NCBI GenBank assembly: GCA_964599285.1
Contig: CAZREI010000001.1
Coordinates: 34,562-98,561 of the forward strand
DNA: 64,000 nt
Origin: an uncultured Candidatus Saccharibacteria bacterium
GTDB lineage: Bacteria; Patescibacteriota; Minisyncoccia; Minisyncoccales; Staskawiczbacteraceae
Direction: 5' to 3'
The notes under the pieces were generated by a model. It saw nothing but the letters and a program-made list of their open reading frames with translations, did not search any database and was not told where the DNA came from. Shown here in pieces: positions 602 to 61,425 of this stretch. Both the position numbers and the translations under genes were made by a program. Each line of letters starts with the position of its first letter. Within the stretch, counting starts at the first letter, position 1.

Positions 602-1912
602 CTAACCCAATTCTATCTTTTTATCTTTGATAGTAAGCTTGCTTTTCATGAATGACATGAGTTCTCGTTTCTCGGTTATGGTTCCGTCCCGTAATAGGTA
701 CTTTGCATAATTCCGTATATCAATATCCGCATTATTGGCTTCTTTTTTATGGCCCAAGACGCCGATCCTGAATTTATTGAATCTGGCGATTTCCAGTTCA
801 ATGGAAGCTCTGATCCCCAGCTCATCAAGATCTATTTTATCGACTAGTTCTATAAATTCATTGATTAATCCGGGTTCGGTTATCGCCGGATTCTTGCAGT
901 CAATATTTCTAGCCTTAGAGCAAAAATAGTAGACGTGGCGATTAACCCCGCCATCCTTGAGCTTTTTAAATTTCTCATCGGCAGTGATGCCGGATCCGCA
1001 GTAGCCACACTTGATCAGTTGGGTAAAGGCGAATTCCTTACTTTCGGTTTTAGGGATAAACTTTTCATTAAGTACCACCTGCACTTTATCGAAGAGTTCC
1101 TTTGTGATAATCGGGGTATGCTTGCCCTGGTACCAATTACCACTGCCGACCGGATATTCAAACTCACCGTAGTAAAAGGTATTTCTTAATAGGATATAAA
1201 TATTTCCCAGGGTCAGAGTTTTCCCGGTCTTAGTTTTGAAGCCGCTATCCACCAGCCAGCGGAATACTTTTCGGCCGGACCACTGCTCGTTTCCCACTTT
1301 TTCGAACATCTGTCTGATAATATGCCCGCGGTGAGGGTCAATCTTTACCTGGCATTTTTTATCCGTGCGGTGTTCGCTTAGGTAACCAGTCGGCGGCTGG
1401 CTTGGGCGCCAGCCCATTTCACATCGAGTCTTAAGGCCACGCATGACATTAACTACTTTATTATCATTTTCTAGCTTAGCCTGGCTACCAAGGATCATCA
1501 GCAAGAATTTCTCATTGGGATTGTTGGTGAATTTCTGGCTGTAGGTTCTGATTTCTACGATCAACTTTTGGTCTATCAGGTCTACCACTGATCCTAGGTC
1601 TCCAGCATTCCTCGCCAGCCGGTCGGGTGCCCAGGTCAAGATACCATTGAATTTCTTTTCACGGATATCAGCCAACATCTGATTGAAGATTGGTCGCTGA
1701 CCGACTTCCTTGGATGAGTGAGCCTCTTTCTTGATTTCTGCCACCGTTAAGCCATCACGCTCCGCTATGACCAGCATTTCCTTAATCTGGGACTCAATGG
1801 AGAGTGCCTGCTGGTCTTCAGCCTCCGTGCTTTTCCTGGCATAGAGGCAATATTTTACCGGTATGGGAATTACCACGGTTTTTTCTCTCGTTGTTATAGT
1901 TGCGTTTTCCAT
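602..1912 (-). CDS. large serine recombinase (resolvase/invertase N-domain, recombinase domain, zinc ribbon)
   Basis: N-terminal 'YCLYARKSTEAEDQQALSIESQ' with the catalytic-Ser context, plus 'WAPDRLARN'. C-terminal Cys cluster 'CGYCGSG...YYFCSKARNIDC'. Length is 436 aa. Confidence 0.9.
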   Translation of the reverse strand: MENATITTREKTVVIPIPVKYCLYARKSTEAEDQQALSIESQIKEMLVIAERDGLTVAEIKKEAHSSKEVGQRPIFNQMLADIREKKFNGILTWAPDRLARNAGDLGSVVDLIDQKLIVEIRTYSQKFTNNPNEKFLLMILGSQAKLENDNKVVNVMRGLKTRCEMGWRPSQPPTGYLSEHRTDKKCQVKIDPHRGHIIRQMFEKVGNEQWSGRKVFRWLVDSGFKTKTGKTLTLGNIYILLRNTFYYGEFEYPVGSGNWYQGKHTPIITKELFDKVQVVLNEKFIPKTESKEFAFTQLIKCGYCGSGITADEKFKKLKDGGVNRHVYYFCSKARNIDCKNPAITEPGLINEFIELVDKIDLDELGIRASIELEIARFNKFRIGVLGHKKEANNADIDIRNYAKYLLRDGTITEKRELMSFMKSKLTIKDKKIELG

Positions 1913-11252: not shown

Positions 11253-11310
11253 CTTATTGTGCGACCCCGCTTAGCGGGGTCAAGGGTCCGCTGGGCGGAC
11301 CGACAAAATC
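11253..11310 (+). repeat. family B double-hairpin element
   Basis: 'cttattgtgcgaccccgcttagcggggtcaagggtccgctgggcggaccgacaaaatc'. Confidence 0.85.
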
Positions 11311-12286: not shown

Positions 12287-12343
12287 TTATTATGCGACCC
12301 CGCTTAGCGGGGTCAGGGGTCCGCTTAGCGGACCGACAATTTG
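12287..12343 (+). repeat. family B double-hairpin element
   Basis: 'tttattatgcgaccccgcttagcggggtcaggggtccgcttagcggaccgacaatttg'. Confidence 0.85.
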
Positions 12344-16020: not shown

Positions 16021-16896
16021 ATGAAAACCATACCATTATTTGCTTTCGCGGGAATTATTGCGCTATTTTTCGTTGCCAGTTTTTTGCCGGTCCAGCCTGC
16101 AAAAGCCATTACCTGCTACTCGCACGCCTCGCGCCAATGCATCAGTAATATTTCTTACTGGTATAACTCCTGTGGCGTCCTGGAAGACTTGGCCCAAAAC
16201 TGTAATGCCACCGGCCAGGTCTGTCAAAGCGGCCAATGCGTCAGTAAAAACCCCGTAACGACAATAACCCCAAGACCAACCCCGCAAAGCTCGCCGGTTT
16301 TGGTGCAAGCTCAGAATTCTCAAACCGCCAGCGCGACCATTGCTGTTTTTGGAAAAAATCACACCGACAGCGCGCAATGGACCAAAAATGTTTCCGCGGC
16401 GACTGGCAGCACCATTGACGTTTTGATTGTTGTCAAAAATAAATCCGAAACTCCCATCACCGATGCCTCGGTAAAAACATATTTGACCAGCCCGATTTTT
16501 ACCATCAGCGACTTACAAATTAACAACGCAACGGCTCCTTCCAACGATATTTCCCAAATTAACCTTGGTACGCTGGCAGCCAAAACAGCGCAAATTATTT
16601 CTTTTAGCGCGACGGTGCAATCACCCAGTGTCCAACCCCAAGCAAACGGCGCGACCGGAACCCAAATTATTGCCAACGTTACTTCGGGCACGGCCACGTA
16701 CGATTCGGATTACCTGGTAGTTTCTACCAACGCCGGCAATGGCGCATTAGCATCGGCTACTCCCACTGCCAGCCCAAGTTCAAAATTGGGATCCGGTTTT
16801 TTTAGCTTTAACAATAACTGGTTTATTTGGTTTTTGATCGTCCTGGTGCTGGTAGTAATCTTTATCATTTTGTTCAGGCGATTCTCCCGCGAATAA
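16021..16896 (+). CDS. secreted/anchored protein with a Cys-rich 'YWYNSCG' module and a DUF11-like domain
   Basis: Signal peptide. 'CYSHASRQCISNISYWYNSCGVLEDLAQNCNATGQVCQSGQCV'. C-terminal TM 'WFIWFLIVLVLVVIFIILFRRFSRE'. Confidence 0.7.
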   Translation: MKTIPLFAFAGIIALFFVASFLPVQPAKAITCYSHASRQCISNISYWYNSCGVLEDLAQNCNATGQVCQSGQCVSKNPVTTITPRPTPQSSPVLVQAQNSQTASATIAVFGKNHTDSAQWTKNVSAATGSTIDVLIVVKNKSETPITDASVKTYLTSPIFTISDLQINNATAPSNDISQINLGTLAAKTAQIISFSATVQSPSVQPQANGATGTQIIANVTSGTATYDSDYLVVSTNAGNGALASATPTASPSSKLGSGFFSFNNNWFIWFLIVLVLVVIFIILFRRFSRE

Positions 16897-16903
16897 CTTT
16901 TGT

Positions 16904-17079
16904 AACCGTGAATCACGAAATGGACAATAAGAAACATATTTCTTGTCTTTCCCCCAATTTTTGGCTATAAATTCGCTATAATTTTTCGGCGGACCCTTTG
17001 GGTAAGCCGAAAAATTCTATCAAATTTCTATCTCAAAAATTGGGGAAAATCCAAAGAAACCATTTCGTGATTCACGGTT
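16904..17079 (-). repeat. family A element, copy 4
   Basis: TIRs are CCGTGAATCACGAAATGG...CCATTTCGTGATTCACGG with the core in reverse orientation. It ends 10 nt before the ATG at 17090. Confidence 0.85.
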
Positions 17080-17089
17080 ATGCTTTGTC

Positions 17090-19717
17090 ATGCCCCAATC
17101 CGCAGCGGTTTTTGAATTTACTTCTTATACATTTGAACCCGATAAAAAAAGGGTTCTTTTCCGTTACACCACCAAATTTAAGGATCGACCACCGCTGCGT
17201 TTTACCGAAACTATTTTGTTGCCAAAGATTCCCAACCTTGATCGCATTCCGCCAGAACCTTTAAAAAAACTCCTCCAAAGCCTGCACTTAATACTGGGCA
17301 TCAGTTATTACAAGTTTTATTGCCCGCCCGCCGTAGCCTTGGCGAAGGAGGATGCGAAACTGTCAAAACAAGAAGCCGAGTTTTGGAACATCGTATACAA
17401 AAAAGGCCTTGGCGAATTTTTTTACAAAAACAATCTGAATCCAAACCGCGCTCCAAAATTTCCGTACGGGGTAACCCGTAACCAGGAACCCGTAACCAGT
17501 AAATTACGCGTTACGGGTTACGCGTTACCGGTTACCAAAAGATCTCTCGTGGGCATCGGGGGAGGAAAAGACTCCATCGTCGCCGCGGAATTATTGAAAG
17601 AAGGCGGGTTTGACGCCACCGCGTTTTACGTTCAAACCAGCAGCGACTCATCGCTGGTAAATAGCATCATCAAAAAAACTGGCCTGCCGTCGCTGAAAAT
17701 TCGACGATTGCTAGACGAAAAAGTGCATCAACCTCATCTTTATGATGGCCATGTTCCCGTGTCAGCCATCCTGGCATTTTTGGGATTTTTTGCCGGCATA
17801 CTTTACGGTTTTGATTATGTCATCGTGGGCAACGAATACAGCAGTAACTTTGGCAACCTCAAATACAAAGGTTTAGACATTAACCACCAGTGGAGCAAGT
17901 CGTTTGAATTTGAAACGCTTTTTCAAACCTATGTAAAAACTTTCATCACGCCTGACATAACCTATTTTTCTTTGCTGCGGCGGTTTTACGAAATCCGGAT
18001 TGTAAAATTGTTTGCAAGTCATAAAAAATATTTTCCGCATTTTTCAAGCTGCAATTCCAATTTCAGAATCGCGGAATCACGCGGAAATTTACGCGGAAAA
18101 ATGCGGAATAAATGGTGTGGTCGATGTGCTAAGTGTGTTTTTGTATTTACACTTCTGTCGGCGTTTTTACCAAAAAAAGAATTGGTTAACATTTTTAAAA
18201 AAAACTTGTACCAAGATAAAACTCTCCTGCCATTATTTAAAGATATTTTGGGATTTGGCGCGATGAAACCTTTTGATTGCGTCGGCACGTTTGAAGAAGC
18301 GCAAACCGCGATGTGGCTGGCCAAAAAAAGATTCGCCCGTGATTTTATTATGCGACAACTTGGCCGGCGCGTAACATTTCACCAAGAAGTTTTTACGACC
18401 AACAAAAACGCCCGCATTCCCGAACAGTTTACTTTCTTGGGAATGGATAGCACGTTGATAGCCGGATTTGGCAACGAGGGAAGTGCTACCAAGAAATACC
18501 TTGAAAAATATTACCCAAAATTAAAACTTGGGATAGCCGAAATATATAAAAATAGGGAAGTGTTCCGCGTAGTTCCGCGTGAATTTCCGCGTAGTTCCGC
18601 GGCTTTTGATCTGGCAATCAAAACTCCAGGCATCAAAAAAGAACTGATTAAAATTCCGTACACCACCGCCACCAATATTTTTTTCTCAAATATTTCCGGC
18701 AAATATCTTACTATCGGCGTTACCGGCAGCAAAGGAAAAAGCACCACCGCGTCACTCATTTTTCATATCTTAAAAACCGCCGGAAAAAATGTTCACCCCG
18801 TTAAATCCGCCAAAAGCGGTGTTTCGCAAACTGCGAAACAATTTAACAGGGTAAAACTATTGGGCAACATTGGAAAACCCATGCTAGAAAATTTGCTCCA
18901 TCCTATAGCAAAAAATACCATTTTTGTCCTGGAACTTTCCAGTTACCAGTTAGATGACCTGCGGTTTTCTCCCGATATTGCCGTGGTGACAAATTTATTT
19001 CCGGAGCACTTGGATTTTCACGGTAGTCTTCAACATTATTACGATGCCAAAAAAAATATCATCCGCTACCAGCAGCCCGACCAATATTTTGTCTACGATA
19101 AAAAAACTGAACCGTGGCTAAAAGAATATCGAGGCAAGCCGGTGCCATTTGCCAAAACAATTCCGGTTCCAAAACACCAAATTCCATTATTGGGTCAGCA
19201 CAATGAAAGCAACATTAAAGCGGCCATCGCCGTCGCTCGGATTTTAAAAATTCCGGAAGCAAAAATAAAAAAAGCCATTAAATGTTTTAAAGGCTTACCG
19301 CATCGATTAGAAAACGTAGGAACATTTAAGGGAATTATTTTTTACGACGACGCCATTTCCACCACGCCCGAATCAACCATCATGGCCATCAAAGCCTTGC
19401 CAGGCGTGCAAACTATTTTTTTGGGAGGCAGCGACCGCGGCTACGATTTTTCGCAGTTGGAAAAAACCTTAAAACAATATAAAATAAAGAACGTGGTGCT
19501 GTTTCCCGACACCGGCTCGCGCATCATAAAAAACACCAAGGGTTTGAATATTCTAAAAACTCGCAGCATGGAAAAAGCGATTGCCTTCGCCTACAAACAC
19601 ACCACACCAGGACACATCTGTTTATTGTCCTGCGCATCGCCCAGCTATTCATTATGGAAAAACTTTGAACACAAAGGCACCCAATTTACCAGATTGGTAA
19701 AAAAGTTGGCTAAGTAG
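17090..19717 (+). CDS. murD: fusion protein: PP-loop-like N-terminal domain (possible MurL-type epimerase) plus UDP-MurNAc-L-Ala--Glu ligase MurD
   Basis: The C-terminal half carries 'IGVTGSKGKSTTASL', 'LELSSYQLDD', 'NLFPEHLDFHGS' and 'GLPHRLE'. The N-terminal ~455 aa carry 'VGIGGGKDSIVAAELL' and 'WCGRCAKC'. Confidence 0.85.
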   Translation: MPQSAAVFEFTSYTFEPDKKRVLFRYTTKFKDRPPLRFTETILLPKIPNLDRIPPEPLKKLLQSLHLILGISYYKFYCPPAVALAKEDAKLSKQEAEFWNIVYKKGLGEFFYKNNLNPNRAPKFPYGVTRNQEPVTSKLRVTGYALPVTKRSLVGIGGGKDSIVAAELLKEGGFDATAFYVQTSSDSSLVNSIIKKTGLPSLKIRRLLDEKVHQPHLYDGHVPVSAILAFLGFFAGILYGFDYVIVGNEYSSNFGNLKYKGLDINHQWSKSFEFETLFQTYVKTFITPDITYFSLLRRFYEIRIVKLFASHKKYFPHFSSCNSNFRIAESRGNLRGKMRNKWCGRCAKCVFVFTLLSAFLPKKELVNIFKKNLYQDKTLLPLFKDILGFGAMKPFDCVGTFEEAQTAMWLAKKRFARDFIMRQLGRRVTFHQEVFTTNKNARIPEQFTFLGMDSTLIAGFGNEGSATKKYLEKYYPKLKLGIAEIYKNREVFRVVPREFPRSSAAFDLAIKTPGIKKELIKIPYTTATNIFFSNISGKYLTIGVTGSKGKSTTASLIFHILKTAGKNVHPVKSAKSGVSQTAKQFNRVKLLGNIGKPMLENLLHPIAKNTIFVLELSSYQLDDLRFSPDIAVVTNLFPEHLDFHGSLQHYYDAKKNIIRYQQPDQYFVYDKKTEPWLKEYRGKPVPFAKTIPVPKHQIPLLGQHNESNIKAAIAVARILKIPEAKIKKAIKCFKGLPHRLENVGTFKGIIFYDDAISTTPESTIMAIKALPGVQTIFLGGSDRGYDFSQLEKTLKQYKIKNVVLFPDTGSRIIKNTKGLNILKTRSMEKAIAFAYKHTTPGHICLLSCASPSYSLWKNFEHKGTQFTRLVKKLAK
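17464..17536. repeat. intragenic in-frame hairpin (CGTAAC/GTTACG words)
   Basis: 'ggtaacccgtaaccaggaacccgtaacc...gttacgggttacgcgttaccggttacc' encodes 'GVTRNQEPVTSKLRVTGYALPVT'. Confidence 0.7.
18067..18113 (+). repeat. intragenic array of 4x CGCGGAA
   Basis: 'aatcgcggaatcacgcggaaatttacgcggaaaaatgcggaa' encodes 'ESRGNLRGKMRN'. Confidence 0.7.
18558..18602 (-). repeat. intragenic array of 4x TTCCGCG (inverse of the 18067 array)
   Basis: 'ttccgcgtagttccgcgtgaatttccgcgtagttccgcgg' encodes 'FRVVPREFPRSSA'. Confidence 0.7.
18796..18851. repeat. intragenic in-frame compound hairpin
   Basis: Outer stem ccccgttaaat/atttaacaggg with inner hairpins ccgc-caaaa-gcgg and tgtttcgc-aaact-gcgaaaca. Encodes 'HPVKSAKSGVSQTAKQFNRV' between the MurD P-loop helix and 'LLGNIG'. 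Confidence 0.7.
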
Positions 19718-19720
19718 AAC

Positions 19721-19806
19721 TGGCTACCAAATACGAATCTGTACGAATATACCAATAACCAAAGCGTTTTCATTCGTATATTCGTACAGATTCGTATTTG
19801 GTAGCA
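19721..19806. repeat. family D (TACGAATAT-word) long hairpin, copy 1
   Basis: Perfect 29-bp stem gctaccaaatacgaatctgtacgaatata / tatattcgtacagattcgtatttggtagc. It ends 3 nt before the ftsW start. Confidence 0.85.
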
Positions 19807-19808
19807 TA

Positions 19809-20936
19809 GTGATGAAGCAACACATAAATTATTATTTTTTAGGATTATCCATTATTCTTTCCGGATTCGGTCTGCTGTTTTTATCAACCCTTTCGGCCAT
19901 CGCCTCGCTGCAAGTGTTTGGCAACACTAACCACTATTTATTCCACCAATTAATTGCCCTGGTCATTGGCATTGTTGCCGGCATCATCATATTTTTTCTG
20001 CCGCTGGGATTTTTAAAAAAACTGTCGCCGATATTGCTGGTAATAAATGTTTTGGGATTGGTGGTGGTATTTTTGCCATTTTTGGGAACCAAATTTTGGG
20101 GTGCTTCGCGCTGGATTAGCGTGGGAGACACCACCTTCCAACCTTCGGAATTTTTTAAAATCACCATCATTTTATTTTTTGCCAGCTGGCTTGCCAGCAA
20201 GTTCTCCGAGTCATCAAAAAGAGGCTTTGGATTTAAAATAAAAAAAGAGTACGATAATCTGGTAAAAGTATTTGTGCCTTTTGTTATTTTTTTGGCCATC
20301 ATCGCCGCCATTTTTTATTTACAAAAAGACATCAGCACGCTGGGCATTATCATGGTGGCGCTCTTGGGAATGTACTTTATTGCTGGCACGCCGATTTGGC
20401 ACACGCTGACATTGCTAGTGGTTGGAGTGTCAGGTGCGGCGCTGGTTATTATTAAAGAACCTTATCGCTTAAACCGTTTGCTGATATTTTTGCATCCGGA
20501 CGCCGACCCTTTGGGCAAAGGATTACAATTAAAACAGTCACTCATTGCCCTGGGATCAGGTGGTTGGTTTGGAAAGGGGCTTGGCATGTCCACCCAAAAA
20601 TTCGGCTTTTTGCCCCAAGCCATGTCGGACTCTATTTTTGCCATTTTGGGAGAGGAACTGGGCATCATCGGTTGCGCTATTTTGGTGCTGGCATTTTTAG
20701 CATTTTTGTATTTGGGATTTAAAATCTCGCGCCAATCAACTGATTCATTTGCTCGCCTGACCGCCGTTGGCATCACCCTGTGGATTGTGTTTCAGGCGTT
20801 TTTCAACATAGCCTCAACCCTGGGGTTGTTTCCACTAAGCGGCATTCCGCTGCCATTTTTTTCTTACGGAGGCTCGCACATCATAGCGGAACTGATGGGA
20901 GTGGGGTTGATGTTGAATATCTCTAAGAACGGGTAA
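19809..20936 (+). CDS. ftsW: SEDS-family peptidoglycan glycosyltransferase FtsW/RodA
   Basis: Multi-TM protein with 'GGWFGKGLGMS', 'SDSIFAILGEELG' and 'PLPFFSYGGS'. Confidence 0.9.
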   Translation: MMKQHINYYFLGLSIILSGFGLLFLSTLSAIASLQVFGNTNHYLFHQLIALVIGIVAGIIIFFLPLGFLKKLSPILLVINVLGLVVVFLPFLGTKFWGASRWISVGDTTFQPSEFFKITIILFFASWLASKFSESSKRGFGFKIKKEYDNLVKVFVPFVIFLAIIAAIFYLQKDISTLGIIMVALLGMYFIAGTPIWHTLTLLVVGVSGAALVIIKEPYRLNRLLIFLHPDADPLGKGLQLKQSLIALGSGGWFGKGLGMSTQKFGFLPQAMSDSIFAILGEELGIIGCAILVLAFLAFLYLGFKISRQSTDSFARLTAVGITLWIVFQAFFNIASTLGLFPLSGIPLPFFSYGGSHIIAELMGVGLMLNISKNG

Positions 20937-24275: not shown

Positions 24276-24309
24276 AATGGCTAATTCGCACGAATTAGCC
24301 ATTTTTATT
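24276..24309 (+). terminator. hairpin terminator after gltX
   Basis: aatggctaattcg..cgaattagccatt followed by tttatt. Confidence 0.55.
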
Positions 24310-24360
24310 GTGCGACCCCGCTCAGCGGGGTCAAGGTCCGCTTAGCGGACCGACAGTTTG
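24304..24360 (+). repeat. family B double-hairpin element
   Basis: 'tttattgtgcgaccccgctcagcggggtcaaggtccgcttagcggaccgacagtttg'. Confidence 0.85.
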
Positions 24361-24479
24361 GCTTGGCAAAAAGATAAAACTACTCTATACTGAAGTTCAG
24401 CACCTACTACATGGCTCATCTTAGTTTTGCCTTCGCCAAACCAAAGATGCGCCATACTCATACACAGGGAGGATTTGTC

Positions 24480-25119: not shown

Positions 25120-25174
25120 CTTATTGTGCGACTCCGCTCAGCGGAGTCAGGGTCCGCTTAGCGGACCGACAAAT
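25120..25174 (+). repeat. family B double-hairpin element
   Basis: 'cttattgtgcgactccgctcagcggagtcagggtccgcttagcggaccgacaaatg' carries a compensated hairpin variant (ACTCCGC/GCGGAGT). Confidence 0.85.
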
Positions 25175-25610: not shown

Positions 25611-26591
25611 ATGGAACAAAGCAATATACCAATCCCAAAACACATAAATAACTTCTTAGATTGGATAGATATTGAAAAAGGATTATCTTCTAAAACTCAA
25701 GAAAATTACCGCAGATTCCTTGAAAAATTTTTGGTTTGGTTGAAAAAAAATAATTTAGAAAGTTTGCTTCCCCACCAGCTAACCAAAGAACATATTTGGG
25801 ACTATAGGGTCCACTTATCACGTCATTCCCCTCGACCCAGCCGACCTGGGTACCCCGATAACCAGCCTTTAAAGAAGATAACCCAAAACTACTATTTAAT
25901 CGCTTTAAGGGCCTTTTTAGGCTATTTTGTGGCCAAAGACATACTTTCCATGCCTCCCGATAAAATAACGCTTTCTAGGCCCGATAAAGAGAAAATAGTG
26001 AAGTTTTTGACACTAGAACAGCTATATAAGCTATTTTTAGCTCCAGATACCTCTACGATGCAAGGATTGCGAGATAAAGCCATATTAGAGACCTTCTTTT
26101 CAACCGGAATGAGAATATCAGAGTTAACTTCTTTAAATCGGGAGCAAATTAAAATCAAACCAGGTGCAAATGAAATAGAACTTGGAATTGTCGGCAAGGG
26201 AGGCAGGGCTAGAACCGTTTATTTTTCAAAAAGCACCGTAGAATCGCTAAAAAAATACCTTGACGCGCGAGATACTCAAAACGATAAAGAAAAGGCATTA
26301 TTTGTAAGTTATAGCGGAAAAAAAAATTCACCACACAGATTAACTCCAAGAGCCATTGAAAAAAACTTAAAAAAATACATCATTTTGGCGGGTCTGCCGG
26401 TCACCACAACCCCCCATGTCCTGCGCCATAGCTTTGCTACTGATTTATTGACCCAAGGCGTGGATTTAAGAGTTATCCAGGAATTTCTGGGACATAAAAG
26501 CATTGTTGCCACTCAAATATATGCCCATGTTACGAGTAAAAAATTAAAAGATATCCACCAAAAATTCCACGGCGAGCCAGGTTCAAAGTAA
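25611..26591 (+). CDS. tyrosine recombinase, XerC/XerD-like
   Basis: 'HVLRHSFATDLLTQGVDLRVIQEFLGHKSIVATQIYAHV' (R-H-R-Y catalytic region) and 'GKGGRARTVYF'. Confidence 0.85.
   Translation: MEQSNIPIPKHINNFLDWIDIEKGLSSKTQENYRRFLEKFLVWLKKNNLESLLPHQLTKEHIWDYRVHLSRHSPRPSRPGYPDNQPLKKITQNYYLIALRAFLGYFVAKDILSMPPDKITLSRPDKEKIVKFLTLEQLYKLFLAPDTSTMQGLRDKAILETFFSTGMRISELTSLNREQIKIKPGANEIELGIVGKGGRARTVYFSKSTVESLKKYLDARDTQNDKEKALFVSYSGKKNSPHRLTPRAIEKNLKKYIILAGLPVTTTPHVLRHSFATDLLTQGVDLRVIQEFLGHKSIVATQIYAHVTSKKLKDIHQKFHGEPGSK
25821..25858. repeat. intragenic in-frame repeat word in the recombinase gene
   Basis: 'cgtcattcccctcgacccagccgacctgggtaccccga' (family C-like GTCATTCC plus a cccag..ctggg hairpin) encodes 'RHSPRPSRPGYPD'. 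Confidence 0.45.
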
Positions 26592-26631: not shown

Positions 26632-26729
26632 GTGTCGCACAATAAAACGCTCCTACCCACCTACGAGTAGGAGTGTTTTGTCGGTCGCTAAGCGGACCCT
26701 GACCCCGCTCAGCGGGGTCGCATAATAAG
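26632..26729 (-). repeat. composite: truncated family B tail, 24-nt hairpin module, full family B copy (left island boundary)
   Basis: 'gtcgcacaataaaacgctcctacccacctacgagtaggagtgttttgtcggtcgctaagcggaccctgaccccgctcagcggggtcgcataataag'. Confidence 0.85.
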
Positions 26730-27615: not shown

Positions 27616-27671
27616 AAGTCGGTCCGCTCAGCGGACCGAAACCCCGCTTAGCGGGGTTGCACAATAAAAAG
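27616..27671 (-). repeat. family B double-hairpin element
   Basis: 'gaagtcggtccgctcagcggaccgaaaccccgcttagcggggttgcacaataaaaag'. Confidence 0.85.
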
Positions 27672-27711: not shown

Positions 27712-28212
27712 ATGACAGCGAAAATATCAGAATTTAATTTAGCTCAACTTGCCAGCGATGACGGCTGTTTTGATTTGCAGTTTCGCAAGGATACTCGGCA
27801 CGATCGCACCGGCTCCCCCACTTACTATCGCTGGAAGGCGCAATTTATTATTACCCTGCCAAAAGAACAAGTTGACATTTTGGAAAAAGCTAAAAAAACT
27901 ATCGGCTGTGGTACGGTTTCAAAAACTGCTACACAAGCCCGATTTTCGGTCCAGAACATTGATGATATTGCCGATGGCGTAATCCCCTACTTTACCCAAC
28001 ACAAGCTGTCGGGCAATAAAAAACAAGATTTTTCGCTGTGGCAAAAAGCCGTCCAAATTATTTACCAAAATAAGCGGACGCCGCTTTCCAAATGGAAAAA
28101 GAATGATTTGTTGAGCCTTCTGCAAATCCACAAAGCCAGCGCCAAATATAAAATAAAACCCAAAAAATCCAAGTGGATGGAGATGGCACAAGTGTTAGTT
28201 AAAAAACCGTAA
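27712..28212 (+). CDS. LAGLIDADG-family homing endonuclease, single-motif (homodimer-size), free-standing
   Basis: 'FNLAQLASDDGCFDL' is a LAGLIDADG-type motif. 166 aa. 'GVIPYFTQHKLSGNKKQDFSLW' is typical of the family. Confidence 0.75.
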   Translation: MTAKISEFNLAQLASDDGCFDLQFRKDTRHDRTGSPTYYRWKAQFIITLPKEQVDILEKAKKTIGCGTVSKTATQARFSVQNIDDIADGVIPYFTQHKLSGNKKQDFSLWQKAVQIIYQNKRTPLSKWKKNDLLSLLQIHKASAKYKIKPKKSKWMEMAQVLVKKP

Positions 28213-30413: not shown

Positions 30414-30552
30414 CTTGTCGGTCCGCTAAGCGGACCTTGACCCCGCTCAGCGGGGTCGCATAATAAAACACTCCTACTCGTAGGTGGGTAGGAGTGTTTT
30501 GTCGGTCCGCTACGCGGACCCTGACCCCGCTCAGCGGGGTCGTATAATATAA
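30414..30552 (-). repeat. composite: family B copy, 24-nt hairpin module (flipped), family B copy (right island boundary)
   Basis: 'cttgtcggtccgctaagcggaccttgaccccgctcagcggggtcgcataataaaacactcctactcgtaggtgggtaggagtgttttgtcggtccgctacgcggaccctgaccccgctcagcggggtcgtataatat'. Confidence 0.85.
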
Positions 30553-31444: not shown

Positions 31445-31530
31445 TTGCTACGAAATACGAATTTTTTACGAATATACGAAACTAAACGCTTATGTTCGTA
31501 TATTCGCAGGTAATTCGTATTTCGTAGAGA
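31445..31530. repeat. family D long hairpin, copy 2 (rpmA leader)
   Basis: 'gctacgaaatacgaattttttacgaatatacgaa...ttcgtatattcgcaggtaattcgtatttcgtagaga' ends 5 nt before ATG 31536. Confidence 0.85.
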
Positions 31531-34389: not shown

Positions 34390-35580
34390 CTACTTTAAAT
34401 TCTGTATGATTTCAAGGGCTTTGGCCAGCTGCGGATCTTTTTTTGCCTGGATATCGGCGTCGTTGATGTCAACTTTTACATCGGGGGCAAGTCCGACTTC
34501 GGAAATGGAATTTCCCTTGGGCGTCAGCCACTTGGCAATGGTAATTTTCAAAAACGATGCGTTGTCCTGCAAATTTATTACTTCCTGCACCGATCCCTTG
34601 CCAAACGATTTTTCGCCAATCAATTGGACATTACGATCATCGTGCAAGGCTCCGGCCAATATTTCCGAAGCCGATGCTGACCCTTTGTTCATCAAAACCA
34701 CCACCGGATACAAAGCAAAACTGGCGTTTCCCTCGGCTTTATACTGCTCCTGCGCCTTGCCTTTTCCAAAATCTTCAATGGTCACCACCTGGCCTTGTTT
34801 TAAAAACCAACCGGCAATATCCTGGCAAACTTCAAGGTATCCGCCTGGATTGTCGCGCACGTCAATGATAATTTTTTTGGCCGGACTTTTTAAAATTTCA
34901 AAAGCGGCTTTTTTAAAATCATCTGATAACGTTTGGTCAAACTGGTGGATATGGATAACCGCCACATCGCCATCTTTTAGCTGCCAATCCACCGATGGCA
35001 CAATAATAGTGGCGCGGGTAATGGTAAAATCTTTGGTGTCGTTCCATCCTTCCCGAAAAATGGTAAGTGTCACCGGAGTTCCCTTTTTGCCGCGGATGGC
35101 GTTGACCGCTTGATCGGCGCTCATGTCAGAAGTGCTTTTGCCATTGATTTTTACAATCGCATCACCGGCTTTTAACCCAGCTTTTTCGCCCGGCGTACCT
35201 TTTAGGGGTGCCACAATAGTCAGCTGGTCTTTTTTGATGGCAACTTCTATGCCAATACCTTCAAATGATCCAGCCAAATCCTGTTGGAATATTTTGGCGT
35301 CTTGCGGATTAAAAAACGAAGTGTATGGGTCTCCTAAGCTTTTAGTCATGCCGGCGATAGCGCCGTAAACCACCTGCTGATCTTGAATTTTATCGGGATT
35401 GATATAATTTTGGTGGAGCTTATTGTAAGCGTCCCAGAACAAAGAAAAATCAACCGTTTCCGGTTTGCAAACTTTGCAGACCACCTGGCTTTTACCCAAT
35501 AAATCACCGGCACCAAAAGCAATCAAAAGCAACAGAATAAATCCTACCCCATAGCCAATATTTTTTTTATTAAAAACCAT
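34390..35580 (-). CDS. ctpA: C-terminal processing peptidase (S41) with a PDZ domain
   Basis: 'GIGIEVAIK...GTPGEKAGLKAGDAIVKING' (PDZ), 'DVRDNPGGYL' and 'VVLMNKGSASASEILAGAL'. Confidence 0.9.
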   Translation of the reverse strand: MVFNKKNIGYGVGFILLLLIAFGAGDLLGKSQVVCKVCKPETVDFSLFWDAYNKLHQNYINPDKIQDQQVVYGAIAGMTKSLGDPYTSFFNPQDAKIFQQDLAGSFEGIGIEVAIKKDQLTIVAPLKGTPGEKAGLKAGDAIVKINGKSTSDMSADQAVNAIRGKKGTPVTLTIFREGWNDTKDFTITRATIIVPSVDWQLKDGDVAVIHIHQFDQTLSDDFKKAAFEILKSPAKKIIIDVRDNPGGYLEVCQDIAGWFLKQGQVVTIEDFGKGKAQEQYKAEGNASFALYPVVVLMNKGSASASEILAGALHDDRNVQLIGEKSFGKGSVQEVINLQDNASFLKITIAKWLTPKGNSISEVGLAPDVKVDINDADIQAKKDPQLAKALEIIQNLK

Positions 35581-36215: not shown

Positions 36216-36304
36216 TCTCTACGAATTACGAATGTAGTACGAATATACGAATGCAAATGTTTTTGGTTATTGGTATATTCGTAAAAAATTCGTATTTCGT
36301 AGCA
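36216..36304. repeat. family D long hairpin, copy 3
   Basis: 'ctctacgaattacgaatgtagtacgaatatacgaatg...ggtatattcgtaaaaaattcgtatttcgtagca'. Confidence 0.85.
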
Positions 36305-36308
36305 TATT

Positions 36309-40570: not shown

Positions 40571-40657
40571 ATGCTACCAAATACCAATAGTTACGAATAT
40601 ACCAATAACCAAAACGTTTTCATTCGTATATTCGTAAAAAATTCGTATTTCGTAGCG
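40571..40657. repeat. family D long hairpin, copy 4
   Basis: 'atgctaccaaataccaatagttacgaatataccaataaccaaaacgttttcattcgtatattcgtaaaaaattcgtatttcgtagcga'. Confidence 0.85.
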
Positions 40658-41916: not shown

Positions 41917-41923
41917 TAAACTT

Positions 41924-42097
41924 GGCTACGAAATACGAATTTTTTACGAATATACGGAAACGCTTCGCTTCTCCACGAATTACGAAACGAGTACGAATAT
42001 ACGAACGTGAACCTATGACTCATTTTCGTATATTCGTAAGATTTCGTATTTCGTAGCCCGTTTTGGTATATTCGTAAAAAATTCGTATTTCGTAGCG
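41924..42097. repeat. family D double-length hairpin cluster, copy 5
   Basis: 'gctacgaaatacgaattttttacgaatatacgg...cgtatattcgtaagatttcgtatttcgtagc' plus 'ggtatattcgtaaaaaattcgtatttcgtagcga'. It starts 8 nt upstream of the mraY ATG. Confidence 0.85.
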
Positions 42098-42100
42098 ATA

Positions 42101-49159: not shown

Positions 49160-49516
49160 ATGGAAATTCGAAAACGCACGCTGGTGGCGTGTGATTTGTA
49201 CCTGCCGGCCAATAGAAAAATGGGGTTTGGCATCGTACTAAATCAGGATGAAAATGAAAACAGTTTAGCGGGACGGAGCTTCCGAGTAAAAATAATCTAT
49301 CCGGACTCCGCTAAAAACTCAACCTATCACATTCTTGAAACCGAAATGGTTCCGCTGGCACAAGATTGTGATCTGGATAGCAAAGCAGATCATCTCCTGG
49401 AACATCTCCCCGAAGTTTTCCTTACCCTAATACGCGCCATTGACGGTCTGAAAAGGGAAAACCAATTCCTCAAACAGACCATTAACGGCGGCGTTGACGG
49501 TGTTAAGATACGGTAG
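49160..49516 (+). CDS. hypothetical protein
   Basis: 118-aa ORF preceded by 'aaggagaag' and followed by a terminator at 49541-49569. Confidence 0.5.
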   Translation: MEIRKRTLVACDLYLPANRKMGFGIVLNQDENENSLAGRSFRVKIIYPDSAKNSTYHILETEMVPLAQDCDLDSKADHLLEHLPEVFLTLIRAIDGLKRENQFLKQTINGGVDGVKIR

Positions 49517-49540
49517 GTCTTGCGAGGAATTTCGTAAGAC

Positions 49541-49569
49541 AAAGCTCGAATCCCGGTTCGAGCTTTTTT
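49541..49569 (+). terminator. rho-independent terminator
   Basis: aaagctcgaa-tcccgg-ttcgagcttt followed by tttg. Confidence 0.65.
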
Positions 49570-49589
49570 GTTCTTTTAAACATGGTACT

Positions 49590-50294
49590 ATGGAAATGAT
49601 GAATAAAGAAATTGCTGATATTTTTAATGACATGGCTATCCTCTTGGAAATTAAGGGAGATTCGGCTTTTCGAATCAATGCTTACCGAAAATCGGCTCGG
49701 ATTTTGGCTTCCCTACCCCAGGATATTTCAAGTATTTATCAGGAGAAGGGGTTAAAAGGCATACGGGATATCGGCATCGGAGAGAAAAATGCCAAGAAAA
49801 TTGAGGAGTATATTCAAAGCGCCGCGCGCCCGCGGGCGCGCGGCGCAGGTGGCTTCGGAAAAATCAAAGACTACGAAAAATTAAAAGAAGAAACCGCTAT
49901 CCGCCAAATTATCACCCATTTTTTCAAATCCAAGGGACTGGGCTTGCAAGAATTAAAAGAACATGCTAAAAAAAGAAAGATAATCTATTCCCGCTACACC
50001 AAACCGGCAAAACAGCTTTTAGAATTGGCTGGATCCATTGAAGGCGCCAAACAAGCCATTGATACGGTAGCCGCCTGGGCCAATTCGCGCAAACTGGATT
50101 ACACCATTGAAACGGTTTTTAAAAAGTGGCTGGAATTGGATCGCTTAAAGCCCAAAGAAATTATCAAAAAACCGTTTTACCAGGGTGACCCGATAGTAGA
50201 AAAACACGGCAAGCGTTATGTTATTTCAAAGCAGGGAGAATGGCTCTTGTTCGCGGGCAAGGACAAAGACATAGAGTGGAGAATAGTAAATTAA
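49590..50294 (+). CDS. helix-hairpin-helix protein resembling the N-terminal 8-kDa domain of PolX, without a polymerase domain
   Basis: 'EIADIFNDMAILLEIKGDSAFRINAYRKSARILASLPQDI...IGIGEKNAKKIEEYI'. The start was moved past the terminator. Confidence 0.55.
   Translation: MEMMNKEIADIFNDMAILLEIKGDSAFRINAYRKSARILASLPQDISSIYQEKGLKGIRDIGIGEKNAKKIEEYIQSAARPRARGAGGFGKIKDYEKLKEETAIRQIITHFFKSKGLGLQELKEHAKKRKIIYSRYTKPAKQLLELAGSIEGAKQAIDTVAAWANSRKLDYTIETVFKKWLELDRLKPKEIIKKPFYQGDPIVEKHGKRYVISKQGEWLLFAGKDKDIEWRIVN
49819..49846. repeat. perfect 28-nt GC palindrome embedded in frame
   Basis: gcgccgcgcgcccg|cgggcgcgcggcgc encodes 'SAARPRARGAG'. Confidence 0.8.
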
Positions 50295-55887: not shown

Positions 55888-58800
55888 TCACTTGTTAACG
55901 GTATTTAGAGCCGCCAGTGTGGCCGGTCCCACGTTGCCGGTTTGGCGAATGTTTTTTGATTTCTGAAAAAGTTTTACGGCTTGTGTGGTGGCTTGTCCGT
56001 AGTAACCATTGGGAATCGCGGTTAAAAATCCCAACTTTACCAAAAGCTGTTGAAGATTCAAAACGTCGGGACCACGGTCGGTCGGGCCAAGGTAGCGAGT
56101 CAAGGACGTGCTTAAGATTGCTTCGCTGTGGCTCGCAATGACGGGTGACATGACCGTAACTTGGGCAACCGCTCGAGCCTCATGGCCATAGGAATCTTTG
56201 GCAAAGACGGTGATGGTGTGCGTTCCAATATCATGTTGAGTCGGAGTCCAGGTAAAGATGCCCAAGGCATTGATGTTGGCGTTGGTGATACTGGTGGCCA
56301 CGGCAGGCGCGGGCGGCGTGGACTGCTTATTCTCACGAATAAGCAGTCCGTTGAGAACGTCTTTGGTTTTGGGGCCCACGTTTCCGGTTTGGCGGATGTT
56401 TCGAGATTGCTGGAAAAGTTTTACGGCAGTGATGGTTGATGGACCGTAGTTTCCGTTTGGTTGGATGTTTGATGGAAAGAAACCTTGCTGGTGCAACCAT
56501 TGTTGCAGTGCTAAGACATCGGGGCCGTGATCGCCCGGACCAAGGTAGCGGGAGAGCAACGCGCTTTGCGGAGGCACAGTGACGGGTGGCAAAGACACTA
56601 CCGGAGTTGATGGAGTAAACTGGTCGCTTAAAGAATACAACGGGTTGGTGGCAAAACCTTGTGGGTAAGCCTTGAGCGTAACCTGATTACCCGCGGCAAC
56701 GGATTGCTTTGAGTTGGAAAGCGAGAGGCTGAACTGAGAGCCGATCCAGCCGATGCCGCCACCCCCGCCACCTCCACCGGACGGAGTTGGTGTGGGCGTT
56801 GGCGAAGCCGCGGCCGGCGTGGTAGCAGAAGATTCGTTGGATGGATTTCCGATGCCAACAGAATTGATAGCAGAAACTCGGTAGTTGTATTGGGTGCTGG
56901 CAGTCAGGCCGGTATTGGAATAGGTGGTTGCAGTCGTCCCGGTATCGGCCACCAAAACAGCAAATCCGTTGCCAACCGGAGATTCTCTTTCTATTTTGTA
57001 ACCAGTAACCGTTCCTGAAGGCGCCGTCCAAGATAAATCAATCTGGCTGGTAGAAATAGCCGTAGCTGATAAATTAGTTGGAGCATCAGGAATAAATAGC
57101 TGCCAACGAAGATATGGGTAGCCATCGTTGCGCGCCAATGCGCTATCGATGTTCCAAATAGTGGCAAAGTCCCAAGGTTGTGATCCGCCTTGAGCATAAA
57201 CGGCATGAGTAGTTGCTCCCTTGAAAACAGTGGCACCGGCGGGTTCCAGAGTGCCTTGCCCGTTGTCGTGAGCGGAGTCAGTGAAGAAGGAGTTGGTGAT
57301 GGTGGGAATTACATTAGTGTTGCCTATTAAACCACCTACGTTACCTGTACCAGAAACGGTACCGTTAGCATAAGAGTTAGTGATGACAACTAAATTAGCG
57401 AAAGAAATTCCCACTAACCCGCCTATGTTACCGTCGCCAGAAACATTACCGGTAGCATAAGAATTGACAATGGTAGTGGGACCATACGCGCCCGCCATGA
57501 GCCCACCGCTATCAAATCCCGTCCCAAGAACACTTACATTCCCCGTGGCATACGAGTTGGTGATGGTAAGGGTGCCATCTGAGTCACCCACCAAGCCGCC
57601 AGTGTAGATACCGGTTACATTTCCGGTAGCATAGGATTTATCAACAATGAGGATGCCATCCATGTCACCGACTAATCCGCCGATACCATACGATGAATCA
57701 TCGCTGCTTGTGTTGGCAGTAGAGTAAGATTGGGTGATAGTAGTGATTCGGTCATATGGACTAAAATCGTCTTCCACGTATCCCACCAAGCCTCCAATAG
57801 CAAAAGCATTAGTAGGAACTCCGGTTACGCTTCCCGTAGACCAGCAGTTGGTGATGGTTGAAGTGCCAGATGACCAGCCGACAAGTGCGCCAACTTCATA
57901 ACTGCCACTTATGTTAGCTGATTCCACACCAACATTTTGAATGGTAGCATTGTTAATGAAACCAAAAAGCCCAATGGCTTCCACGCCGCTAGTGTTGATG
58001 AATAAGTTAGTGACTTTGTGTCCTTGGCCATTCAGTGATCCTGTGAAGGGAGTGAAGGTGTTATCAAAATCTCCCACGGGGATGAATCCCGCGCCGGAAT
58101 TCCAGTTGACGGTGTCGGAACAGTCAATGTCTCGGTCTAAAATAAAATAGGAAGAAAGCCAGTTATTCATTTCTTGGAGTTGGGTGCAGGAAGTGATTAC
58201 ATACGGATCATTTTGGGTGCCAGAACCCGAGCCGAAAAAAGAGCCTCGTGTAGTAAAATTCAACTCATCACCATACGCGTATCCCTGCGAATTGTGAGCA
58301 TAAGCCCTAAAATAATATGTGGTACTTGAGACGAGGCCAGTTAGGGAAGAGGAGAATGAAATGGCACCAAATGGACCATTGGCATCTTCCGTAAACGTGT
58401 CGTAGCCCGAAGAACCTGGCGCAGTGTTACCAGGATCTGATGGGAAGCTGGTGGTGCCATACACAAATCCTCGCTTGTCGGCATCTTCGCCGCCGGTATC
58501 GGTGATGGTGCCATGGACATCGGCGGCTGTAATGCCAATATTGTCGGAGGAATCGGTGGTAACTACCGGCTGAGAATTGGAAAAGATCCAGCCGGTGTTG
58601 TTGTCTGGGTCGGTGATGGAGTTTGCTCCGGCATACCATTGGGCGCCACCCGTCGCAGCGGAGTCTTGCAAATCAAGGTAGTCGCAATGAACAACGCCCG
58701 ATGGTTTGGACAAGGTATGACGAACTCCGTTGGTGGATGATCGAATGGTAATAATATTTCCTGGACTCCCGGCACAAGTGAACGTGCCATTGATGGTTTG

Positions 58801-61425
58801 AGTGAGAGAGGAGGGGAAGGCAATAGATTCAGGGGCGCCGATGGTAAAATTAGCGAACGTGTTTGCTGAAGAGAAAATTGATGACCCATTTGCTCCTGAA
58901 ATTACGACTGAGGTAGGATAGAATCCTCCAATAGTTCCATTAAAACTGATGAGACCAGAAGAAGTAATGGTGAACACGGGAGTAGTTCCGTTGGCTCGAT
59001 CAACAGAATCAGAAAAGGTAATATTACCATTTCCTGTATCAATGGTAGAATTAGTCGGTATTTGAACTGGACTATTGAATAGCACTGACTGATTCGAGGT
59101 AGTTACATTAGCGTTAAGAAAAGTAAATCCACTGCTAAAAGTAAATGCCCCACTGCCGGAAGCGGTTTGATTTCCATTAAGGAAAATGAAATTTTGAGCA
59201 ATAAAATGAATCGATGTATCCCAAGAGGAATAACTATTTAATGTTATCGTATCTGTTTTTGAGTTGTCACCGATGGTTAGGTCAGTGTAGTTAAGATAAC
59301 CCAGTGTCGTGCTATCAAGTTGCAAAGTTCCCGTTCCGCCGGCTACTCCCACGGTGGTGCTGGCAGTGTAAGGGGCGATCGTCAGTGACGAAACGCTGTT
59401 GATGTCATTGGCTTGGGCAAGGTTGATGGTATCTGTATTAACCGTGATGGTGCCAGTGCCGCTGGTTTGCAGGCCACCAGATATGCCCACTTGGATACCG
59501 TAGTTAGAACTATCACCACCGCCGCGAATACCAATAATAGACAAGTTACCAGACCCTGTAGTTTTGATAGTACTGTTAGTATTAAAAATTGAAATTCCAA
59601 CATTGTCACTACCTGTTCCAGCTCCGCCGCCCGTAGCAGTGATACTCAGATTACCATCAGCCGTAGAAATAGCGCCGCCACTTCTCACAGTTACACCATA
59701 ATTGCTATCGCCATTACCGCTGCCAGTGCCTCCGCCATTACCGATAATACTTAAACTTCCTGATCCGGTATTGCTCATAAGAGCATTGGTACCGGAGACT
59801 TTAACACCATAATTAGCATTACTGGCATCATCACTGCCTCCAGTACCGGTGATAGTCATCGCGCCTCCCGAACCGGTAATAGAACTGCCATCGTTGACGT
59901 AAATACCATAATTACCAAATCCACCACCCGACCCGCTACCACCAGTCCCCGTAACCGAGAGGGTTCCGGTGCCGGTTGTTTGAATACAATGAGAAACCTG
60001 ACACTCAACTCCATCATTAGAATTGCCTGAACCATCAGAATCTCCGCCAATACCCGAAACTGAAAGATTGCCCGAACCGGTAGTTTTAATAGTGCTATTA
60101 GTATTTGCAATCAAAACACCATAACTAGTACTGCCCGTCCCCGCACCACCGCCATTACCGGTAGCAGTTAAATTCCCATCAACCGTAGAAACAATTGCAC
60201 CGCCTCCCATTTGCAAGCCATAGTCTTGGCTACTATCACCAGTTCCCATTCCATTGGCGGTTACAACAAGGGTGCCTGATCCGCTATTATTGATAGCGGC
60301 GGTGCTGCCCGAAATGCGAATGCCGGCATTACTACTGCCGCTGCTATTGCCGCCAGTACCCGTGATAGTCATCGCGCCTCCTGAAGCATTAATAGAACCG
60401 GCCACAAAAATGCCATTGTTACTGCCTCCACTGCTGGTACTGCCGGTTCCTGTAACTGAAATAGCACCAGTACCGGTTGCTTGAATACAATTAACTACAT
60501 TGCAATATACTCCATAATTGCTCCCGCTACTCCCGCTGGGATTGCCCCCGGTTCCGGTAATTGAAATATTCCCCGAACCCGTGCTTTCAATGGTGCTATT
60601 GGTTCCAGTAATATAAACGCCATAGTTATTAGCGCCTGACCCTGCTCCTCCGCCGGTACTATTATTGATGGTAAGATTGCCATTCTCTGCAGAAATACTG
60701 CCACCGGCCGCGACTCGCAAACCATAATCACTATTGCTATTGCTGGTACCATTTCCATTACCCGTGATGGAAATGGTACCCGAACCAGTAGTAGTGATAT
60801 GGCCGTCAAGACCAACGCCTATATTGTTATTGGTAGTAGTGGCAAAACCTTGTCCATTAGCTATGACATTGCCTCCGCCAGCGGTTATTGTCCCTGAAAT
60901 ATAAATACCAATCGGCTGACCAGAATTTCCTATGGCAAACCCGGCACCCGTATCAATAGTACCGCTGCCCCCTCCTACAGTAACATTCCCTCCATTAGAT
61001 GTAATCGTACTATCAATCAGTACATAGCCGGAAGAGTCGGCATCTCTATCCGCATTCAATAAAATGTTAAGTTTGTTGGATGTAGAGGAAATATTTGCAC
61101 CAATATTGAGTATAATATTACTATCAGCGTAGAAACTTGCAGTCGCATCAGTTCCGGAAGATTTGGTAAAGGCATTGTTGACGGTGATGCTGCCTCCGCT
61201 GGCGGTAAAGCTCACACTCGTGCTTGCATTAAGTTGGGTTTGGATATCAGTAACATTGACGACGCAATCACTACCGCTGGTCGCCCAATCCGGACTGCCG
61301 GTGCAAGTAGTAGAAGAACTACTGATAGTAAGGTTGGCAGCTTGGGCGAATACCGGCAGGAACACAAAAAACACGGTAAGAATGAGTGACAGGAGAAAAA
61401 TGTTTTTTACATTACATTTTAACAT
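55888..61425 (-). CDS. giant surface protein: Gly/Ser/Thr-rich tandem repeats, GLUG-motif repeats, FN3, Ig-like and two PG-binding domains
   Basis: Signal peptide. ~140-aa repeats 'TGSGNLS..G.GG...'. 'GGLVG' occurs 6 times. '[21 protein letters not shown]...GYKIERE' is FN3. There are two 'LG.GD.GPDVL.LQ..L...GF......G.YG..T..AVK.FQ....I..TG.VGP.T' domains. Confidence 0.85.
56116..56144. repeat. family C element embedded in frame in the giant gene
   Basis: 'gattgcttcgctgtggctcgcaatgacgg' differs by 1 nt from the intergenic copies at 55820-55848 and 30560-30587. It translates as '[10 protein letters not shown]'. Confidence 0.85.

Follow-up and report, generated by a model that had tools for sequence, protein, structure and literature searches.

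The murL-murD fusion gene in the window, by which we mean the whole 64,000-nucleotide stretch analyzed here (positions 34,562 to 98,561 of contig CAZREI010000001.1, from a Staskawiczbacteria-like genome of the Patescibacteria or candidate phyla radiation, CPR), carries four lineage-specific repeats that are in frame, located in loops and recognizable at the level of DNA. The reading that we prefer, with a probability of about 0.6, is that these four segments are DNA repeats that entered or grew in permissive loops of an essential enzyme and are tolerated there as passengers. All four are in frame and free of stop codons. They comprise two hairpins (segments 1 and 4) and two arrays of spaced heptamer words in opposite orientation (segments 2 and 3), and their positions are given with those of the other features in Table 1.

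The host of the repeats is an intact open reading frame (ORF) of 875 amino acids. The NCBIfam MurL profile (UDP-MurNAc-L-Ala-L-Glu epimerase) covers amino acids 4-418 (9.7e-96) and the C-terminal half matches TIGR01087 MurD (1.8e-71), in agreement with the gene fusion proposed in a preliminary description of this DNA. Pfam matches to Mur_ligase_M (PF08245) and Mur_ligase_C (PF02875) and the precomputed entries PF26298/PF26299 place the MurL N- and C-terminal domains before the Mur ligase middle and C-terminal domains, the order that defines the MurL-MurD fusion enzyme family. The GGGKDS (PP-loop), CxxCxKC (cysteine cluster) and GSKGKST (P-loop) motifs are invariant in an alignment of 44 sequences, and a solved MurD can be aligned through residue 868, so the frame is intact and none of the four segments breaks it, as had been claimed. 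Judged by these sequence features, the gene is functional and not a pseudogene.

A 105-kb contig on record encodes the identical protein, and the nearest non-identical relatives, labelled Candidatus Staskawiczbacteria or Parcubacteria, share only 64-65% identity. The best 120 homologs are all fusions of the same type and all from CPR/Parcubacteria. Ortholog DNA came from four loci retrieved by exact look-up and 80 by metagenome scan; among the orthologous loci with DNA, 49 of 62 are fused and 13 have murL and murD as separate neighbors. More than 1000 homologs of the fusion are found at E <= 1e-10, and a 2021 review describes the MurD2/MurL pathway as confined to few genera, e.g., Xanthomonas (PMC8788868). 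Rfam, terminator and promoter scans over 16800-20000 returned nothing relevant; at gathering score no Rfam covariance model matched, the only hits being sub-threshold microRNA-hairpin look-alikes, all on the intergenic hairpin.

Table 1. Location of the murL-murD gene, its four repeat segments and other features of the window.
Feature	Position	Strand	Evidence and remarks
murL-murD fusion gene, intact, 875 aa, host of the four repeats	17090..19717	+	profile matches, AlphaFold model
Segment 1	17470..17536	+	hairpin, two inverted arrays of ~four GTAACC-type heptamers; encodes VTRNQEPVTSKLRVTGYALPVT
Segment 2	18070..18108	+	single-arm array, 3 x CGCGGAA + TGCGGAA, spacing 10/12/10; encodes (I)AESRGNLRGKMRN
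Segment 3	18563..18601	+	single-arm array, 4 x TTCCGCG, spacing 10/12/10, inverse of segment 2; encodes FRVVPREFPRSSA
Segment 4	18791..18850	+	60-nt clean insert, Y shape with an outer stem around two hairpins; encodes VHPVKSAKSGVSQTAKQFNR
Unoccupied 14-nt motif TTATTATGCGACAA (codons D-F-I-M-R-Q), flank motif of the double-hairpin element	18345..18358	+	sequence match
Double-hairpin element, 8 intergenic copies	24305-24362, 30416-30466, 30500-30542, 25121-25171, 12287-12343, 11254-11305, 26686-26728, 27618-27667		88-100% identity
TACGAAT-word hairpin directly 3' of the stop codon	19723..19805	.	34-nt arms 97% complementary, z -12
TACGAAT-word hairpin family	19718-19808, 40573-40636, 36237-36306, 31446-31527, 41923-42098, 48287-48383		copies 88-92% identical
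Large serine recombinase	605-1912	-	Pfam scan
Tyrosine recombinase	25611-26588	+	Pfam scan
Free-standing LAGLIDADG endonuclease	27712-28209	+	Pfam scan

Segment 1 is a hairpin, as first described, with arms of 33 nt each (17470-17502 and 17504-17536) that are 82% complementary and composed of xGTAACC / GTTACxx heptamers; its RNA folds at -34.9 kcal/mol (z -3.9). It replaces the variable linker preceding the PP-loop motif GIGGGKDS, with a net gain of about 9 amino acids. Segment 2 occupies the loop that precedes the WCGxCxKC motif of MurL (net gain of 6 or 7 amino acids), and segment 3 a loop in the N-terminal domain of MurD (net gain of 8). Exact TTCCGCG words begin at 18563, 18573, 18585 and 18595, and exact CGCGGAA words at 18070, 18080 and 18092, followed by the variant TGCGGAA at 18102, so that the earlier count of four words per array stands for TTCCGCG and becomes three plus a variant for CGCGGAA. 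An exact 17-nt repeat at an offset of 22 nt lies within segment 3. Taken alone, neither array forms local structure (z -1.4 for segment 2 and -0.5 for segment 3). Seven of the 15 CGCGGAA matches of the window sit in these two segments, and four matches within 39 nt are expected by chance at about 5e-12. Segment 4 (fold z -5.9) adds 20 amino acids between the P-loop helix and the LLGNIG strand of MurD, where the preliminary description had placed such a block, and contains no internal word repeats.

The residues encoded by the segments are absent from distant orthologs and fall in loops, both of which had been anticipated. In a MAFFT alignment of 120 homologs, the low-occupancy runs of the query are amino acids 128-136, 332-337, 489-496 and 568-587, plus a three-residue run at 88-90, and column occupancy at the four segment sites is 0.01-0.11 (0.03 at amino acids 128-136). 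Segment 4 is missing in all 119 other homologs, and alignment of the query with the Streptococcus MurD 3lk7 by HMMER opens a 20-residue gap exactly at segment 4, in a loop. An AlphaFold model built on 44 sequences (mean predicted local distance difference test score, pLDDT, 83.9; predicted template modeling score, pTM, 0.82) has as its sole internal stretches with pLDDT <50 amino acids 129-140, 329-338, 486-501 and 567-585, all of them coil between confidently predicted elements and matching the four segments.

Inserts of this kind recur among the orthologs, and the first ortholog-specific inserts inspected were each a hairpin or a word array in DNA. The locus L003 has a homologous GTAACC hairpin at the segment-1 site and, at that of segment 3, a hairpin with several stems. 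In the closest relative, L004, just the right arm of segment 1 is present and the segment-2 site holds a complete CGCGGAT/ATCCGCG-word hairpin, while L001 has a AGTCTGCG x4 array at the latter site. Elsewhere the segment-1 site is filled by tandem heptamers of the unrelated words GTTACCA, TACAAAC and TATACCC, with L003, L128, L134 and L127 among the carriers. Across the 49 fused orthologs there are 37 ortholog-specific inserts of at least 6 amino acids, with hot spots around query amino acids 130-148 (8 inserts), 489 (6), 330 (4), 427 (4) and 78-80 (3). Compared with 30 same-length controls from the same gene, the minimum free energy (MFE) z-score is below -2 in 51% of these inserts and below -3 in 38%, and every insert preserves the frame in all 49 orthologs. 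The peptides encoded at one site differ completely between orthologs, whereas the hairpin or array structure of the DNA is kept. A 12-nt palindrome, CCTGCCGGCAGG (LPAGRQG or LPTGRQA), also lies in frame at differing murL-murD sites (L136 2236, L128 1918, and the ortholog P0044).

Segments 2 and 3 had been interpreted as the separated arms of one hairpin element straddling the junction between the two domains. They do flank the MurL/MurD junction and are complementary to each other (39 nt, 85%, 454 nt apart), and in the fold of 18050-18620 they pair and close a domain of about 450 nt in both the MFE and the centroid structure (z -8.0). An origin as arms of a single hairpin is not supported: the sequence between them is conserved essential coding sequence, and lone arrays occur in two orthologs. 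In L001 the segment-3 site holds an equivalent array of four TTCCGCG words (89% over 47 nt), with no CGCGGAA partner array anywhere in the gene, and L002 has a TTCCGCG array at the segment-1 site (94% over 33 nt; 34 of 39 nt with the same spacers). Because the nearest relatives of L001, at 80% identity, lack the array, its distribution is patchy and not simply inherited. As to a recombination tract shared with L001 around segment 3, sliding nucleotide identity is 0.78-0.83, no higher than in other conserved stretches. None of the 48 other fused orthologs has a comparable long-range inverted pair. The simplest reading is that segments 2 and 3 are two opposite-orientation copies of one four-word element of about 40 nt, (A)CGCGGAA x4 with spacing 10/12/10, and that their pairing is a by-product.

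Four-word CGCGGAA arrays also occur alone in long ORFs (topA, ileS and an ftsQ-like gene) of other Patescibacteria metagenome-assembled genomes (MAGs), with spacings of 10/12/10, 10/11/10 or 11/11/11; the ileS and topA identities are backed by PDB matches and the ftsQ-like label comes from reading the sequence only. The array in ileS is a 10-residue insert opposite a 10-residue gap in solved IleS, and the word is read in all three frames among the different genes. A widespread pan-bacterial element, suggested by at least 119 genome-contig loci with three spaced TTCCGCG words in many phyla, including hairpin pairs, was dropped after a control word of the same composition gave at least 120 matches versus 82 (viral contigs; 7-mer arrays at 9-13-nt period). 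As the control word gives more matches, arrays of this form are generic short-period tandem repeats, and the cross-phylum matches, and partly also the three pattern-derived Patescibacteria ones, carry little weight. The argument is carried by L001 and L002, because their arrays were found in orthologous genes without use of the word pattern. Searches with the array-encoded peptide (a 47-residue concatenate, and a 30-residue segment against 1.84 billion representatives) found nothing and are insensitive to 15-residue matches. As a separate observation, a 34-nt double hairpin, TCCGCCnnnnGGCGGATCCGCCTCTGGCGGA, encoding GSASGGK, lies in frame in topA (L013 3580-3612) and in the ftsQ-like gene (L122 2822-2851) of one Patescibacteria MAG; each of these two genes also has the four-word CGCGGAA array, and the GSASGGK peptide is present at the segment-2 site of the ortholog P0024.

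Almost every intergenic spacer in the window is strongly structured, most of them folding at -0.3 to -0.58 kcal/mol per nt. Arrays of at least three 7-mers are nearly all intergenic, and apart from the two in murL-murD none lies in a well-supported gene; noise in a plain MFE scan of the window precluded a reliable list of in-gene hairpins. One intergenic family, the double-hairpin element of 51-58 nt, has the form TTATTrTGCGAC-CCCGCTnAGCGGGG-TCArGG-TCCGCTnAGCGGA-CCGACAA, in which two GCTNAGC-centered stems lie 20 nt apart between the conserved flanks TTATTrTGCGAC and CGACAA. The sequence CGCTNAGCG occurs 16 times versus 0.54 expected, and the flank TTATTRTGCGAC of the element 14 times versus 0.61 expected. 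In L134 the element lies in frame inside murL-murD (1717-1766; 94% over 50 nt), flanked by a CGAC repeat. Orthologs without it read TTTTATTGTGCGACAAAA (codons F-Y-C-A-T-K), which equals the two flanks of the element joined and points to site-preferring insertion. In L001, hairpin inserts are present at both places of the gene that encode the flank motif, including the counterpart of the motif that is unoccupied in the window (Table 1). Also within the window gene, the sequence at 17317-17359 after the conserved F-Y-C codons reads TTATTGCCCGCCCGCCGTAGCCTTGGCGAAGGAGGATGCGAAA, unlike the consensus C-A-T-K-V. L004 and L128 share part of this sequence, which a fifth insertion at the double-hairpin target motif, since decayed, may have left behind.

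Because the double-hairpin element is found in frame in L134, intergenic repeat families do enter murL-murD. The earlier link between the segments and the intergenic hairpins is sound in principle. The segments themselves share an architecture, and no family, with the intergenic repeats of the window: no sequence relative of any of the four is found among them.

In the reading that we prefer, a pair of hairpins and a four-word array in two copies would have entered, or grown in, four permissive loops of MurL-MurD, as members of the same architectural class as the repeats in the intergenic spacers of this Patescibacteria genome. Survival in an essential gene would require that the frame be kept, that no stop codon be introduced and that the site be a surface loop. 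The repeats would spread as mobile DNA that is very small and non-autonomous (a sister family appears to have a marked site preference), and local slippage or template switching would then extend and perfect the arrays and arms. The inserts would be translated, not removed, as short disordered loop extensions without a role in catalysis. Accommodated in this way, the segments are most likely passengers, whether selfish or mutational.

Insertion of discrete units is favored by the clean ends of segment 4, the arrays of L001 and L002, the GSASGGK double hairpin and the double-hairpin element. Several observations count against the passenger-repeat account. Segments 1-3 replace loops that are variable in all orthologs and are not clean insertions; of the four insertions originally proposed, the alignments leave the term exact for segment 4 alone (a clean gain of 20 amino acids), the other three overwriting loops that already varied. 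The window holds no second copy of segment 1 or 4, and segments 2 and 3 are copies only of each other; for segment 4 the retrieved orthologous loci likewise contain no further copy. No target-site duplication is evident at any of the four segments, and a Pfam scan of 53 ORFs found no transposase in the window, whether of the RAYT (REP-associated tyrosine transposase; REP, repetitive extragenic palindromic) or IS200/IS605 type or of any other. The translation of the inserts is something that we infer. Finally, the 'empty' segment-3 site of L124 has one ATCCGCG word at its border, and this word and the unrelated heptamers at the segment-1 site fit growth in place equally well.

Growth in place as the whole explanation, in which replication slippage copied a seed word repeatedly within a variable loop and template switching made the inverted arms, including segment 2 from segment 3, is the strongest of the competing accounts, and we regard it as rather unlikely. 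It is consistent with the 17-nt repeat inside segment 3, the border word of L124, the differing heptamers of L003, L128, L134 and L127, the single right arm of segment 1 in the closest relative, the small net gains in length and the general abundance of 7-mer arrays at 9-13-nt period revealed by the control word. Slippage in a loop would not readily yield a near-identical array with the same spacers elsewhere in the L002 gene and at the matching position of the non-sister L001, nor a clean 60-nt block devoid of word repeats such as segment 4, and the double-hairpin family clearly moves as a unit. Insertion and growth in place probably both act. A functional long-range RNA stem across the MurL/MurD junction, serving for example as a translation pause between domains or in transcript stability, would make use of the 85% complementarity of segments 2 and 3 and of their predicted pairing, and is very unlikely, given that among 49 fused orthologs no gene but that of the window has a pair of this kind, that L001 has the segment-3 array alone and other genes have single arrays, and that ribosomes would keep a translated region unwound.

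Selection of the inserts as adaptive loops for interaction or regulation in the fused enzyme, in keeping with the recurrent use of the same loop sites and the presence of segments 1 and 3 in a few orthologs, is more improbable still. The wholly different peptides at sites where the DNA structure is kept, the reading of one DNA word in three frames in different genes, the predicted disorder of the segments and their absence from most orthologs all argue against a selected peptide. Repeats and hairpins are error-prone in short-read assemblies and the source is a metagenome-assembled contig, and yet an assembly or sequencing artefact is scarcely credible when the identical protein is encoded on the 105-kb contig, homologous segments are found at these sites in L001, L003 and L004, which were assembled independently from other samples, and every segment keeps the frame.

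The in-gene hairpins show a strand bias. The antisense strand gives the more stable fold for 16 of 22 hairpin-type inserts of the orthologs (mean difference -2.4 kcal/mol) and for only 41% of control coding segments (binomial p = 0.004; the sample is small and partly non-independent). Among the inserts that differ most between strands are segment 4 (-25.7 kcal/mol on the sense and -33.7 on the antisense strand), segment 1 in its L003 version (-19.5 and -35.2) and the L004 hairpin (-33.4 and -48.6), and the bias consists of A-C mismatches on the sense strand that are G-U pairs on the antisense strand (loci L001-L004 and L124-L203). Selection against stable mRNA hairpins, survival of antisense-inserted copies only, or a single-stranded intermediate are possible causes. 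A speculative and somewhat doubtful extension of the passenger-repeat account is that Patescibacteria carry mobile families of about 40-60 nt, both hairpins and four-word arrays at helical spacing, that insert with site preference and in either orientation into intergenic spacers and loops of essential genes by way of a single-stranded or antisense intermediate. The antisense intermediate is proposed because 16 of the 22 in-gene hairpins are more stable on that strand, and one candidate enzyme would be the host tyrosine recombinase, in view of the 8-mer CGCATAAT in the flank of the double-hairpin element. Under this extension the intergenic hairpins would be pairs of arrays, and segments 2 and 3 the same process caught inside a gene.

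The recombinases and the endonuclease found by the Pfam scan of the window are given in Table 1. The tyrosine recombinase is syntenic with an integrase of L003 and is therefore probably a housekeeping Xer protein. A copy of the double-hairpin element stands on each side of it (25121-25171 and 26686-26728), the two in inverted orientation, and CGCATAAT, the 8-mer in the flank of that element, presumably matches part of the dif-site arm that XerC binds in E. coli.

Other word families fill other spacers of the window, including ACAAAT, TAATTAG/TTCTAAT and a 49-nt-arm GGCTAAGCCGAAAAATT type, and the strand asymmetry of the intergenic hairpins follows no pattern relative to gene direction. The ORF of ribosomal protein L27 (31398-31811) is extended at its N-terminus by about 48 residues, which overlap a hairpin of TACGAAT words (31448-31527), and the true start codon probably lies downstream of this hairpin. 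Further perfect hairpins lie in likely genes: a 28-nt GC palindrome, GCGCCGCGCGCCCGCGGGCGCGCGGCGC, is located at 49819-49846, just after the HHH_8 domain of a 266-residue protein (49494-50294), and two more (60727-60798 and 56311-56350) lie within a surface protein of 1845 residues (55888-61425).

If the segments are tiny mobile or self-expanding repeats, the reduced genomes of CPR bacteria tolerate repeated invasion of essential genes, and part of the ortholog-specific 'insertions' and length variation of CPR proteins would be explained. Such loops would then be DNA-level passengers and not functional features of the protein, which calls for caution among annotators and structure predictors, and the elements would be among the smallest known to colonize coding sequence. 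The system would also be tractable, offering dozens of independent events and five hot spots in a single gene. As regards the biology of peptidoglycan, the inserts show which loops of MurL and MurD tolerate 6-20 extra residues. The observation is of value mainly as a way into the biology of repeats in CPR genomes, the phenomenon being of a known kind, similar to the Rickettsia palindromic elements (RPEs), and new in its very small size.

Our literature search found no paper on such repeats in CPR, Patescibacteria or Parcubacteria, and the nearest comparisons are with repeats of other genomes. The double-hairpin element and the TACGAAT-word hairpins resemble REP sequences, REPINs (REP doublets forming hairpins) and MITEs (miniature transposable elements with inverted repeats) as short, multi-copy repeats that form hairpins. 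REP and REPIN sequences are extragenic by definition and tied to RAYTs, whereas the segments are intragenic and the window contains no Y1 transposase. Of the marks of a MITE, namely terminal inverted repeats, target-site duplications and an insertion sequence as its parent, none is evident for segments 1-4 in the window. Fungal mitochondria harbor GC-cluster, double-hairpin and translational-bypass (byp) elements, which, like the repeats described here, are tiny hairpin elements invading protein genes of a reduced, A+T-biased genome. The byp elements disrupt the reading frame and the ribosome passes over them, whereas in all 49 fused orthologs the murL-murD inserts preserve the frame and contain no stop codon, which argues for ordinary translation with nothing to bypass.

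A likeness in size is also offered by the small dispersed repeats (SDR) and short tandemly repeated repetitive sequences (STRR) of heterocystous cyanobacteria, which Elhai and colleagues reportedly described in 2008 as repeats some tens of nucleotides long that frequently lie within heptamers in tandem or small hairpins and are inserted site-specifically into a short conserved sequence. Element size, the nesting of heptamers and hairpins, and site-specific insertion are common to both systems. The cyanobacterial repeats belong to another phylum, differ in sequence and are mainly intergenic; they are not typified by in-frame colonization of four loops of an essential enzyme.

RPEs are in-frame palindromic repeats at fold-compatible positions in many housekeeping genes (PMC10969869, a MITE review). 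As in that system, palindromic repeat DNA lies in frame in a housekeeping gene and would add a peptide without loss of function, and the segments share the location within an ORF and the predicted fold-compatible surface position. Segments 1 (z -3.9) and 4 (z -5.9) fold as palindromes and segments 2 (-1.4) and 3 (-0.5) are direct word arrays. As for multiple copies, related ones are present in L001-L004, and within the genome the comparison covers the 64-kb window. RPEs measure about 100-150 bp, fall into ten families, encode a conserved peptide and reside in an alphaproteobacterial endosymbiont, whereas the segments measure 39-73 nt (two to three times shorter), include two non-palindromic word arrays, are read in varying frames and belong to a CPR host. 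RPEs are therefore the closest precedent for the repeats in murL-murD, by architecture and description.

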